DNA of 30,086 bases, taken from the NCBI GenBank assembly GCA_029258885.1, contig JAPDJW010000026.1, positions 1 to 30,086 on the forward strand. The letters are read 5' to 3'. Below the pieces are notes generated by a model. It was given only the letters and a program-made list of their open reading frames with translations. It made no database searches and was not told where the DNA came from. Below, one piece after another: positions 5,490 through 8,831 of the stretch (position 1 is its first letter; each line of letters starts with the position of its first letter). Source of the stretch: Thermoproteota archaeon. Lineage in GTDB: Archaea; Thermoproteota; Thermoprotei; Thermofilales; B9-G17. Made by a program: the position numbers and the translations under genes.

Positions 5490-5827
5490 AGGATATATTT
5501 CAGGGCTAAATATTTAAGTTATTGTCTACACGGAACGGACGATGAGCTAATAATGATCTATTAGATTATCAATAAGAAGACTGTGGCCATTGAAAACCCT
5601 TAAGCCGAGAATCCGTAGTTAAATAGAACTTATTTCTCCCTATACTTTAAATACATAGTTGAGTAGAATAGGTTATCTACGCTATTTCTATGACCAAGCA
5701 AATGTGTCTAAACACTAATCTTAAAGTTTTAAGATGATAGTAAATCTGTAAAACCTGGATTTAAAAATATTTTCCCTTAATTCAGTAATAATAGCTTAAA
5801 GTAAAAGCCAGAATAAAAGTTAGAAAA

Positions 5828-6511
5828 TTAGGAGGATTTTAGCTCCTCTATTTTAACCTTGATCTTTTCAAGTTGTGAGCTAATTATTGAAAGCTGTTTC
5901 TCAAGCATATCCTTCTGTTGCTCTAACATCCACTTCTGTTGCTCCAGCATCCACCTCTGTCTTTCTAAAAATTTTATAAAGCTTTCTCTATCTCCCATAG
6001 GGGACATTTGGGCTTGTGGGGCTGTAGGAGGTTGATATCTAGGCGGAGCTATTGGCATAAACGGAAATTGCATAAATGGAAATTGCATGGGTGGAGGCTG
6101 AACTTTTGGCATTGATGGAGGCTGAGGATACGTGGGAGCAACTGGTGGCTGAGCTGTTGTAGGCACCTCAGTTAACTCTCCATTCTTGTATTTTTCGACT
6201 GCCTCCTGTACGGTGAGGTATGGTTCAACCGATAGAATCTTTACTCCTCTTTGCTCTAGCATCGTCCTAGACTGTGGCATGATGGAGGCTGTTATTAGAA
6301 CCTCTGCCCCCTCCCTTACAACGATATCTGCTGGATTGTACATTGGATAGGGGAAGAAGAAACCTCCAGCTAGCGGTATGGAATAGACGTCGGTGACGTT
6401 TCCATCCTCAACTGTAACGAACGTTATGTAGGGAGAGTTTTCAAACTGTGGAGATACATAGGCGGATAAGCCGTCAGGCGTGCTTGTTGTAATAGCCAGT
6501 TTAACCAACAT
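5828..6511 (-). CDS. NifB/NifX-family (COG1433-like) domain plus Pro/Gln/Phe-rich linker plus C-terminal coiled coil
   Basis: KLAITTSTPDGLSAYVSPQFENSPYITFVTVEDG...GAEVLIT...GVKILSVEPYLTVQEAVEKYKNGEL. Tail is MLEQQKWMLEQQKDMLEKQL. GGTGA SD upstream. Confidence 0.8.
   Translation of the reverse strand: MLVKLAITTSTPDGLSAYVSPQFENSPYITFVTVEDGNVTDVYSIPLAGGFFFPYPMYNPADIVVREGAEVLITASIMPQSRTMLEQRGVKILSVEPYLTVQEAVEKYKNGELTEVPTTAQPPVAPTYPQPPSMPKVQPPPMQFPFMQFPFMPIAPPRYQPPTAPQAQMSPMGDRESFIKFLERQRWMLEQQKWMLEQQKDMLEKQLSIISSQLEKIKVKIEELKSS
5901..5963. repeat. Three imperfect 21-nt tandem units encoding heptad repeats (xMLEQQK)
   Basis: tcaagcatatccttctgttgc / tctaacatccacttctgttgc / tccagcatccacctctgtctt. 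Confidence 0.8.
6055..6088. repeat. 15-nt tandem repeat encoding MQFPFMQFPFM
   Basis: gcataaacggaaatt gcataaatggaaatt gcat. Confidence 0.8.
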
Positions 6512-6519
6512 TCATCACC

Positions 6520-6699
6520 TTAAAATAGGATCCAGAACCACGGTGAAAACCAGAGGTAATACCAGGGATACAGCCAGTAGCCCAGGGTTCCCAGTAGCAG
6601 ATAGTAGGGCAGCATGCTATAGTAGTAATAGTAGTATGGCCAAATCATGTAGTAATATAAGAAGGGACTATAGTACCACGGATAGTACCAGTAAAACAT
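6520..6699 (-). CDS. Unannotated 59-aa Tyr/Trp/Pro-rich microprotein
   Basis: Hand translation gives MFYWYYPWYYSPFLYYYMIWPYYYYYYSMLPYYLLLGTLGYWLYPWYYLWFSPWFWILF*. A GGGGGA SD and TTATATAAAA lie upstream. The TAA stop is followed at once by the GGTGA SD of the NifX-like gene. Confidence 0.75.
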   Translation of the reverse strand: MFYWYYPWYYSPFLYYYMIWPYYYYYYSMLPYYLLLGTLGYWLYPWYYLWFSPWFWILF

Positions 6700-6906
6700 G
6701 CCAATCCCCCTTTTATATAATTTGATTTCTCATATTAAAAGTTAGCCTATAAAATAGTTTCATAGAATAGTTCTTAATAAGTAGCGGTAAAATGTAATAA
6801 GAAATTATCTTAGCTATAATATCTCTTTTCCCTTATACCATACGCTTGAATCCTCTATGTAAAAGCTTATTATTTTATTCTGAGAATATTTTTATGGTGT
6901 TCCATC

Positions 6907-8340
6907 TTGGATTTACGGATTTATAACCACCCAATTCTAGAATTTAAGAGGGATAAGGAGGTATACTTCTACTTCAACGGTAAGAAAATTAAAGGATATA
7001 GTGGCGAAACCATAGCAGCAGCGCTATACGCCAGCGGATACAGAAGGATTACGAAGAGTCCTAAGTACAGGAGGCCTAGAGGTGTCTACTGCATGATAGG
7101 TAAGTGTTCATCCTGTATGGTTCGCTTAAATGGTGTACCGAACGTTAGGTCATGTATTGTTCCGGTGGAGAATGGAATGATTGTTGAGACGCAGGAGGGA
7201 TATGGAGAGTTACCCTCAAGTGTGAATTTAGAGAACTCTGAAGGCTGGGAGGAGATGGAGACAGATGTTGCTGTTGTAGGCGGTGGCCCCGCTGGTTTAT
7301 CTGCAGCCATATATGCTGCAAGGGTTGGAGCTAATGTTTTGCTTATGGATGAGAACTATAGGCTTGGGGGACAGCTTATTAAACAGACGCATAAGTTCTT
7401 TGGATCGAAGGATCTATACTCCGGTATAAGGGGCATCGAGATCGCTAGGATACTGGAGGACGAGGTTAGGAGTCTACCTAACATAGAGGTTATGCTTGGA
7501 GCCGAGGTCTTCGGCTTCTATGAGGGAAGAATTTTGGGCGTGCTTAGGGATAATAGGGTAGTGAAAGTTAAGGCGAAGACTATAGTTTTCGCCACAGGTG
7601 CATCCGAGAACTTTCTAGTCTTCGAGAACAACGATTTACCCGGTGTTATGGGCGCTGGAGCCGCCCAGACCCTGATGAACGTCTACGGGATAAAGCCCGG
7701 AAATAGCGTATTAATGGTTGGTGCAGGTAACGTCGGTTTAATAGTCTCCTATCAGATGCTTCAGGCAGGGATAGAGGTTAAAGCTATCGTCGAGGCTATG
7801 CCTAGAATAGGCGGATACGTGGTACACGCTGCTAAGGTTAGGAGGTATGGCGTACCAATACTCACATCACATACAATTAAACGGGCGCTAGGCAGGGATC
7901 ACGTAGAAGGCGCGACGATAGTTAAGCTTGACGAGAACTGGAACGAAATACCCGGCAGTGAAAGGGATATCGAAGTCGATACTATATGTCTAGCTGTCGG
8001 GTTAAACCCGAGCTCCCAGCTACTTTTCCAAGCTGGATGTGAAATGCGGTATATTCCCGAGCTCGGTGGTGAAGTTGCCTTGAGGGATGAAAATCTTGAA
8101 ACTACCGTTGAAGGCGTATTTGTTGCAGGCGATTTATCAGGTATTGAGGAAGCTTCAACGGCAATTCTTGAGGGGCGTATAGCTGGAATCTCTGCTGCTA
8201 TGAAGGTTGTGGGAGTTTCGAGCGAGTGGATTAAGAAGCGTGAAGAGATGAAAGCTATGCTTAAGGAGATAAGGTCTGGGCCGTTTAGCGCCAAGGTTGT
8301 TAGGGGTTTAAGGAAGGCCCTAATTGGGGTGGTCTCATGA
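6907..8340 (+). CDS. Dye-linked L-proline dehydrogenase/sarcosine oxidase alpha-like subunit (2Fe-2S domain plus FAD/NAD oxidoreductase)
   Basis: GETIAAAL...YRRPRGVYCMIGKCSSCMV; VAVVGGGPAGLSAA; FATGASE; GVFVAGD. Confidence 0.9.
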   Translation: MDLRIYNHPILEFKRDKEVYFYFNGKKIKGYSGETIAAALYASGYRRITKSPKYRRPRGVYCMIGKCSSCMVRLNGVPNVRSCIVPVENGMIVETQEGYGELPSSVNLENSEGWEEMETDVAVVGGGPAGLSAAIYAARVGANVLLMDENYRLGGQLIKQTHKFFGSKDLYSGIRGIEIARILEDEVRSLPNIEVMLGAEVFGFYEGRILGVLRDNRVVKVKAKTIVFATGASENFLVFENNDLPGVMGAGAAQTLMNVYGIKPGNSVLMVGAGNVGLIVSYQMLQAGIEVKAIVEAMPRIGGYVVHAAKVRRYGVPILTSHTIKRALGRDHVEGATIVKLDENWNEIPGSERDIEVDTICLAVGLNPSSQLLFQAGCEMRYIPELGGEVALRDENLETTVEGVFVAGDLSGIEEASTAILEGRIAGISAAMKVVGVSSEWIKKREEMKAMLKEIRSGPFSAKVVRGLRKALIGVVS

Positions 8341-8831
8341 GTTTTGAGACAACTGGAATTATTAGGGTTGAGGACTTAAGGAAACTTGGGTTAATGCCGA
8401 GTGAGGCTAGGATGCGTAAAGGGCCCGTGGTAATTGTTGAATGTGTCCAAAGGATACCGTGTGATGCCTGCGTATTTGCCTGTCCTTTTGGTGCTATAGT
8501 TAAAGAGAACATTAACGATATTCCTAAGGTCGATTTCAATAAATGTATTGGCTGCGGAGCTTGTGTTTTAAGGTGTCCGGGTTTAGCTATATTCGTTGTT
8601 GATCTTAGTATAGGGAATGGTAAGGCTCTGGTAACGGTGCCGTATGAGATGCTTCCTAGGCCTAGGGTAGGTTTAAGGGCTGAGCTTTTAGGTAGGGATG
8701 GGTCGTCTTTAGGCTATAGCAGGATAGTGAAGGTTGTTGAGTCGAAGGATAAGACTTATGCTGTTACAGTGGAGGTTGACGAGAAATTAGCTATGGAGGT
8801 TAGAGGTATAAGGGTGATGGGGGATGTGTGA
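8337..8831 (+). CDS. 2x[4Fe-4S] ferredoxin subunit of the proline dehydrogenase-type complex
   Basis: ECVQRIPCDACVFACP and CIGCGACVLRCPG. ATGA overlap with the upstream gene. Confidence 0.9.
   Translation: MSFETTGIIRVEDLRKLGLMPSEARMRKGPVVIVECVQRIPCDACVFACPFGAIVKENINDIPKVDFNKCIGCGACVLRCPGLAIFVVDLSIGNGKALVTVPYEMLPRPRVGLRAELLGRDGSSLGYSRIVKVVESKDKTYAVTVEVDEKLAMEVRGIRVMGDV

Follow-up and report, generated by a model that had tools for sequence, protein, structure and literature searches.

A charge-free, Tyr/Trp-rich microprotein encoded directly upstream of a NifX/IssA-type protein in a Thermoproteota archaeon

Results

A charge-free aromatic microprotein precedes a NifX-like protein

A 59-codon ORF on the minus strand of the 30,086-nucleotide stretch of Thermoproteota DNA analyzed here (contig JAPDJW010000026.1 of assembly GCA_029258885.1, hereafter the window) encodes an extremely aromatic, charge-free microprotein and is immediately followed by the gene for a 227-residue NifX-like protein, hereafter the partner. 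From the comparison of homologous loci, we conclude that this ORF codes for a protein whose sequence is maintained by purifying selection. That the peptide and its partner are made together by translational coupling is the best explanation of their arrangement, as the founding of a small, previously undescribed family by the peptide is of its relationships. The features of the unit are as follows:

6720-6711, minus strand: TATA-like TTATATAAAA, read from the sequence
6710-6705, minus strand: G-rich SD-like GGGGGA, 5 nt 5′ of the microprotein ATG, read from the sequence
6520-6699, minus strand: microprotein gene, 59 codons plus TAA (ATG at 6699-6697, TAA at 6522-6520), from ORF reading, homologs and dN/dS
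6512-6522, minus strand: putative coupling junction, TAA (6522-6520) followed by SD-like GGTGATGA, adjoining the partner ATG at 6511
6161-6511, minus strand: partner residues 1-117, NifX/IssA-type alpha/beta domain (PF02579, IPR003731), Pfam E 2.3e-9
5996-6160, minus strand: partner residues 118-172, Pro-rich low-complexity linker, from composition and AF2
5834-5989, minus strand: partner residues 175-226, one long helix of coiled-coil type with an invariant QQKW, AF2 pLDDT about 90 or above
5822-5848, minus strand: terminator-like hairpin and T-rich tail where the partner gene ends, from a consensus scan only

An earlier note on this DNA had described the ORF as rich in Tyr and Trp and devoid of charge, a description confirmed both by residue counts and by ranking within the genome. 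The peptide consists of 20 Tyr, 9 Leu, 8 Trp, 6 Pro, 5 Phe, 3 Met, 3 Ser, 2 Ile, 2 Gly and 1 Thr, such that 33 of its 59 residues (56%) are Tyr, Trp or Phe and none is Asp, Glu, Lys, Arg or His; Cys is likewise absent, as is any charged heptad helix. The corresponding averages in the same genome are 4.9% Tyr, 1.3% Trp, 4.3% Phe and 25.6% charged residues, with 10.5% aromatic residues in long ORFs. Among the 27,294 stop-to-stop ORFs of at least 30 residues in this 2.1-Mb genome, it ranked first in aromatic content. The most aromatic 30-residue segment of the peptide reached a fraction of 0.63, followed by values of 0.53-0.57 for the next-highest ORFs, the most aromatic conserved proteins among which stood at 0.53. 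An aromatic N-terminal part, a short aliphatic center (LLLGTLG) and an aromatic C-terminal part ending in PWFWILF make up its layout, and the repeated YPWYY motif mentioned in the earlier note begins at residues 6 and 44. The same note held that the ORF is not a simple microsatellite, and this was borne out: the Tyr codons are divided between TAC (12) and TAT (8), and the only repeat located within the ORF by Tandem Repeats Finder is a 9-nt unit at 6619-6636 present in just two copies, too few for a microsatellite. All eight Trp residues of the window peptide (6523-6699) fall at even positions (z 3.6 relative to shuffles), a pattern that the homologs do not share.

One element of the earlier description did not stand. 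The ORF had been called hidden, but the identical protein is among the called genes of at least 20 public contigs, and the sequence is also present in the ESM Atlas; the microprotein is thus unannotated, not hidden from gene callers.

Coding status and selection

By our estimate, an ORF of this length has a probability of about 8% of arising by chance at its base composition. The length of the frame is therefore not beyond chance and the case for a gene rests on conservation. Pairwise comparisons with homologs yielded differences at codon positions 1, 2 and 3 of 18/20/33, 25/27/36 and 15/23/34. Where dS was unsaturated, dN/dS values of 0.083 and 0.046 were obtained for the peptide and of 0.138 and 0.209 for the partner in the same pairs; the dN/dS of homologs, a check proposed in the earlier note, thus lies at 0.05-0.08, below that of the partner. 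In six contigs from close strains, the peptide gene carried 2-4 changes relative to the window, all of them synonymous; the partner gene of these contigs carried 15-17 synonymous changes together with 8-10 nonsynonymous ones. Each member of the family harbors 14-21 TAY codons, every one of them a single step from a stop codon, yet the frame has stayed open in host DNA ranging from 31 to 64% GC. Conservation reaches the non-aromatic positions, the N- and C-terminal motifs and three prolines of the peptide. The conclusion that the gene is coding is drawn from the third-position bias, the low dN/dS, the synonymous-only changes between strains, the open TAY-rich frame and the fate of the opposite strand, where a frame at 6480-6725 (plus strand) is open in the window but interrupted by stops in a homolog. 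This antisense ORF matched no family and was rejected as a gene. A chance ORF in non-coding or antisense-coding DNA, in favor of which speak the unexceptional length and the open antisense frame of the window, is effectively refuted by these same comparisons.

Two sequences departed from the intact frame. In one metagenome-assembled genome (G010), the peptide gene begins ATG GCT TAG (L007, 1314-1322), where a related metagenome contig (L053, 337-345) has the Trp codon TGG at codon 3; the TAG may have arisen by nonsense mutation or through faulty assembly, or may be read through, in a gene replete with TAY and TGG codons. In the 64%-GC lineage, an extra C in a C-run at 2148-2200 of L006 (equivalent to L042) and 1040-1100 of L051 shifts the frame relative to 1190-1238 of L052, as a result of which the tail of the peptide gains Asp and Arg while the ancestral Trp-rich end can still be read in the +1 frame. 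Since the frameshift is common to two independent assemblies, it represents a real frameshifted or decaying copy. Together, the altered C-terminus in one lineage and the TAG codon in one genome suggest that the gene can decay.

Signals and junctions of the unit

The earlier note had credited the microprotein gene with its own SD and TATA-like box, and both TTATATAAAA and GGGGGA are indeed found upstream of its ATG. In near-identical strains, represented by two related metagenome contigs, the G-run reads GGGAGGGAT, a better SD, and apart from this run and the adjacent bases the upstream intergenic region is identical in both contigs. The TTATATAAAA region may be regarded as a putative promoter.

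At the other end of the gene, 8 nt separate the peptide stop from the partner start in the window, and 0, 5, 6, 7, about 10, 13 or 14 nt do so elsewhere, with GGTGA or GGTGG located at or across the peptide stop in all homologous loci. Synteny in every lineage found to carry the partner gene, the spacing of 0-14 nt and the position of the SD over the stop all support the two-gene, co-translated unit put forward in the earlier note. Peptide and partner are in frame with each other in two loci and out of frame in the others; a read-through fusion of the two was rejected because this relation is not constant; the two are thus separate polypeptides. No same-strand gene continues beyond the partner, and the hairpin and T-run mark the end of the unit.

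Homologs, synteny and distribution

Full-length orthologs of the partner gene, a fusion of the domains listed above, were present in three of 41 genomes of the same order, and a metagenome scan added 10 more loci. The three same-order loci are those returned by a scan of public genome contigs, two of which are titled 'uncultured Thermoproteales archaeon'. In every locus with upstream DNA, a strongly aromatic ORF of 56-63 codons was present directly 5′ of the partner on the same strand; the conserved ORF at the syntenic position, on whose presence in relatives the earlier note had made its reading depend, is therefore there. The homologs comprise at least six distinct peptides, and all are charge-free with the sole exception of one Arg in one variant (Gly in a sister contig). 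They share a common plan consisting of Met, an aromatic/Pro N-terminal part, a PW pair, a Tyr run, a short aliphatic block, more Tyr, WP(F) and a Trp-rich end; the aliphatic center between aromatic runs is present in most members. Compared with shuffled sequences, the order-specific similarity of the window peptide to three members gave z scores of 4.4, 3.0 and 2.8, more than composition accounts for. Its similarity to the most distant subgroup is weak, the two being linked through an intermediate member. The earlier note had recognized no family for the peptide, and neither the peptide nor its homologs matched any in Pfam or NCBIfam; a look-alike search of the ESM Atlas with the peptide returned no usable match.

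The distribution of the peptide was surveyed with a three-row profile (A2) that recovers its own genome (E 2e-12), a seven-row profile (A4) having missed the peptide in that genome. Clear A2 matches were obtained in three of 120 genomes of the class (its own and two others), all of which have the partner gene. In a sample of the phylum, the own genome stood alone among 401 (0 of 400 others). The third genome with the partner gene carries a divergent, frameshifted copy of the peptide that was recognized by synteny only. Marginal A2 matches elsewhere (E 0.02-0.9) were rejected, the ORFs not being aromatic and no NifX gene adjoining them. As far as it has been found, the peptide thus appears narrowly distributed, being confined to one Thermoproteales-type order and, within it, to three lineages.

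Apart from a four-gene row in one subclade, the neighboring genes vary between loci, such that only the peptide/partner pair is common to all. In that subclade, two further same-strand genes of no known family are located 5′ of the pair. One of them, which in this row (L047, L049, L052, L042 and L051) is separated from the peptide gene by a single gene, encodes a 209-residue protein; the intervening gene encodes a 133-residue protein of no family, a homolog of which is found elsewhere in the genome of the window, G000 (contig C13, 11874-12281). A 104-residue protein of G000 (contig C1, 286451-286765; L030, 4452-4766) has an aromatic, charge-free first half, and its last 45 residues, which are helical, share 58% identity (E 3e-15) with the C-terminus of the 209-residue protein (L049, 390-1019). 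Divergently from the peptide gene, a row at 6907-8831 on the plus strand of the window codes for a pyridine-nucleotide-disulphide oxidoreductase of the 2Fe-2S/FAD type and for a ferredoxin-like 4Fe-4S protein. Taken with the SO_alpha_A3/Fer2_BFD and DAO genes of related contigs, this row resembles a sarcosine-oxidase/proline-dehydrogenase-type complex; it adjoins the peptide gene in close strains only.

Architecture of the partner

The N-terminal domain of the partner scored 37.9 bits against PF02579 (Nitro_FeMo-Co/NifX; cut-off 26.3), and the nearest solved relative of the partner profile (A5) was MTH1175 (1eo1, E 1.1e-15). In an AF2 model built from eight homologs, this domain was predicted with pLDDT values above 90 except in the loop at residues 49-56. 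The 55-residue linker, which contains 19 Pro, 8 Gln, 6 Met and 6 aromatic residues, is predicted to be disordered (pLDDT below 50 over residues 120-172). The C-terminal helix that follows is 52 residues long, rich in Glu, Lys and Gln, and scored 17.6 bits against the C-terminus of DUF5320 (PF17253; cut-off 27). The label DUF5320-like given in the earlier note thus holds weakly for this helix and fails for the peptide, since the PF17253 profile matched neither the window peptide nor two of its homologs even at E values up to 1. Tandem duplications of 21 nt at 5912-5960 (in the coiled coil) and of 15 nt at 6055-6088 (in the Pro/Phe/Met linker) show a recent repeat expansion of the low-complexity parts of the partner. 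The partner has no Cys, no His and no usual HFG-type motif, which makes iron-sulfur binding uncertain.

Physical chemistry and predicted structure of the peptide

The Wimley-White interfacial free energies of the members of the peptide family total -38 to -46 kcal/mol, and their best 19-residue segments reach -18 to -23 kcal/mol on the Wimley-White octanol scale. The Kyte-Doolittle maximum over 19 residues is 0.7-1.3 and the Hessa (translocon) scale gives +2 to +5 kcal/mol. The Wimley-White scales thus strongly favor the membrane interface, and the Kyte-Doolittle and Hessa scales call no classical transmembrane helix. The aliphatic core spans only about 7-10 residues. AF2 predicted the peptide to be mostly helical with moderate confidence (helix 12-43, pLDDT 66). 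Helical moments revealed no amphipathic Tyr or aliphatic face common to the members. When the partner (A5) and the peptide (A4) were modeled as a complex, without controls, the score was 0.00, which speaks neither for nor against binding.

Discussion

Proposed role of the peptide

Since the peptide is encoded directly 5′ of every partner ortholog found, it is most likely a subunit of the partner; since it is charge-free and carries 33 aromatic rings, it cannot remain free in the cytosol. Our best reading, which we regard as an evenly balanced proposition, is a translationally coupled subunit that is located at the membrane interface, self-associates, or does both, and on which the oligomeric partner is anchored or nucleated. 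Its chain would form a single long hydrophobic element, helical for the most part, in which Tyr/Trp belts flank a short aliphatic core. This element would sit in or on the cytoplasmic membrane interface, self-associate through aromatic stacking, and so act as the anchor or nucleus for assembly of the partner. In this manner, an aromatic 'sticky' segment that is carried in cis by IssA and by DUF5320-type paralogs of the same genome may be provided in trans by the peptide. Its similarity to other aromatic families does not exceed what composition accounts for (z at most 2.4), and the notion of a tail in trans therefore rests on analogy. Physical binding to the partner, location at the membrane and a role with iron-sulfur are properties that we infer.

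The main rival to this membrane-interface reading would place the peptide in the cytosol, as the water-excluded aromatic core of an IssA-like particle or condensate bearing the NifX-coiled-coil partner on its surface, and we hold it to be unlikely though well worth keeping in mind. IssA (PF2025) of Pyrococcus furiosus, a thioferrate iron-sulfur storage protein, forms nanoparticles, and the aromatic residues of its low-complexity tail have been proposed to stabilize their assembly (Vaccaro et al. 2017, PMC5524996). Such a core would also fit with the absence of a membrane helix on classical transmembrane scales and with the company kept by the aromatic small proteins of the same genome, which cluster with mainly apparently cytosolic proteins (NifX-like, MinD-ferredoxin ATPases and DUF134). 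However, the peptide family is without Arg and almost without Gly, unlike the IssA tail and the DUF5320-type peptides, and thus cannot bind an anionic iron-sulfur polymer electrostatically; its short aliphatic block is, moreover, typical of buried or membrane segments.

Two further readings detach the peptide from the partner protein. In one, which we consider improbable, the ORF would be a regulatory leader whose 33 aromatic codons gate translation of the NifX-like gene, for instance by sensing aromatic aminoacyl-tRNAs, the peptide itself being functionless. Leader peptides rich in aromatic codons are known from bacterial attenuators such as pheL and trpL, and the present ORF resembles them in being short, immediately 5′ of another gene whose SD overlaps its stop, and in its extreme runs of Tyr, Trp and Phe codons. 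Against this stand the constraint at the protein level, which extends beyond the aromatic positions, the lack of charge at the approximately 26 non-aromatic positions of each member in a genome with a quarter of its residues charged, the 0-14 nt spacing, which in all loci leaves no room for the alternative hairpins of a terminator and antiterminator, and the NifX-type identity of the downstream gene, which is not one of aromatic amino-acid biosynthesis. These four points make the leader reading unlikely. In the other, which strikes us as very improbable indeed, the ORF would encode an exported or modified peptide unrelated to the partner, such as a Trp/Tyr-rich antimicrobial or a RiPP-type precursor. 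Small size and Trp/Pro-rich motifs are compatible with such a product, but no gene for a maturation enzyme, radical-SAM protein, protease or transporter is common to the loci, and the peptide has neither a leader/core layout nor cationic residues.

Returning to the subunit reading, a bolder form of it, which we put forward as a highly speculative long shot, is that the peptide is a natural aromatic-ladder material, in which stacked Tyr/Trp helices would make up a matrix at the membrane that is redox-active (hole-hopping) or binds Fe(III) as phenolate. If so, the matrix would act on an iron-sulfur deposit of the IssA-like partner by nucleating it, capping it or connecting it electrically, and would represent a protein-encoded wire or mineral interface made almost wholly of Tyr and Trp. 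That selection holds a peptide at one-third Tyr and uncharged across such a range of host GC contents brings it close to the extreme of what natural proteins show in composition and, consequently, makes it a clean test case for interface anchoring, pi-stacked self-assembly and the chemistry of redox or metal centers. An IssA/MTH1175-type protein, with which it is strictly paired, provides a concrete partner with which to test these ideas. The peptide would bring a 'tail in trans' layout to the poorly understood NifX-like/DUF5320/MinD-ferredoxin systems that are widespread in anaerobes, and, if the two proteins do bind, would help explain how these iron-sulfur-handling proteins reach higher-order assembly.

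Comparison with known systems

Small hydrophobic membrane proteins with aromatic belts are a known kind, and Tyr-rich structural coats, formed by Gly/Tyr-rich sulfur globule proteins, are known around hydrophobic sulfur deposits. The peptide resembles the former in being small and uncharged and in having a short aliphatic core flanked by Trp and Tyr, but this core is confined to about 7-10 residues and no helix is called on standard transmembrane scales; it differs from both in having no signal peptide, no Gly repeats and no detected homology to them. From attenuator leaders, which it resembles in gene layout, the peptide is set apart by the lack of space for a terminator/antiterminator, the non-biosynthetic downstream gene and the purifying selection on its amino-acid sequence. 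A literature survey covering DUF5320, small proteins of Thermofilum or associated with NifX, and sulfur globule proteins yielded no description of such a peptide, and none was found on the function of DUF5320.

The closest parallels lie with NifX-type proteins that bear aromatic low-complexity sequences. DUF5320 proteins are likewise small, rich in Tyr, Trp and Pro, of low complexity and encoded beside NifX-like genes. The peptide differs from them in lacking their Gly/Arg-rich, Cys-bearing N-terminal motif and their C-terminal coiled coil, the coiled coil being located on the partner instead; it has an aliphatic core, and no gene for a MinD-type ATPase or DUF134 is located beside it, in contrast to DUF5320-type clusters. 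After correction for composition, z scores against DUF5320-type aromatic proteins were at most 2.1 for the window peptide and 2.4 for a second member of the family. The genome of the window contains two further PF02579 genes, one of which belongs to a DUF134/MinD-ferredoxin cluster:

28800-32300 of G000 contig C2 (3836-7215 of L029): second cluster, with DUF134, aromatic small proteins, two MinD/CbiA-ferredoxin ATPases and a NifX-like protein

The small proteins of this cluster are an 85-residue DUF5320-like protein with an aromatic N-terminal part, a Pro-rich stretch and a coiled coil, a 90-residue protein with a GRGPFSYLPPWQRPGW motif and a Tyr/Pro tail, and a 60-residue protein rich in Tyr, Pro and Met, while its 141-residue NifX-like protein has a Gly/Arg/aromatic N-terminal tail. 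The same gene set recurs in other genomes of the order (L009, L010 and L012). From this cluster and its recurrence, it follows that aromatic low-complexity segments are a recurring accessory of NifX-type proteins in these archaea, usually fused in cis.

In IssA, whose domain was modeled on MTH1175, itself described as an IssA-type protein, a Pro-rich stretch comes after the domain and leads into a cationic tail (pI 10.7) rich in Gly and aromatic residues (PMC5524996). The partner shares the first two of these elements, with its IPR003731/PF02579 domain followed by the Pro-rich region (19 Pro in residues 118-172), but it terminates in a coiled-coil helix in which Glu, Lys and Gln abound, and it contains neither Cys nor His. 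Binding of iron and sulfide, formation of thioferrate nanoparticles and induction by sulfur further characterize IssA-type storage proteins. Where the IssA tail is in cis, cationic and Gly-rich, the aromatic element here is a separate, charge-free polypeptide with two Gly. The peptide is thus a new, compositionally extreme variant of the aromatic accessory sequences of IssA/NifX-type proteins.
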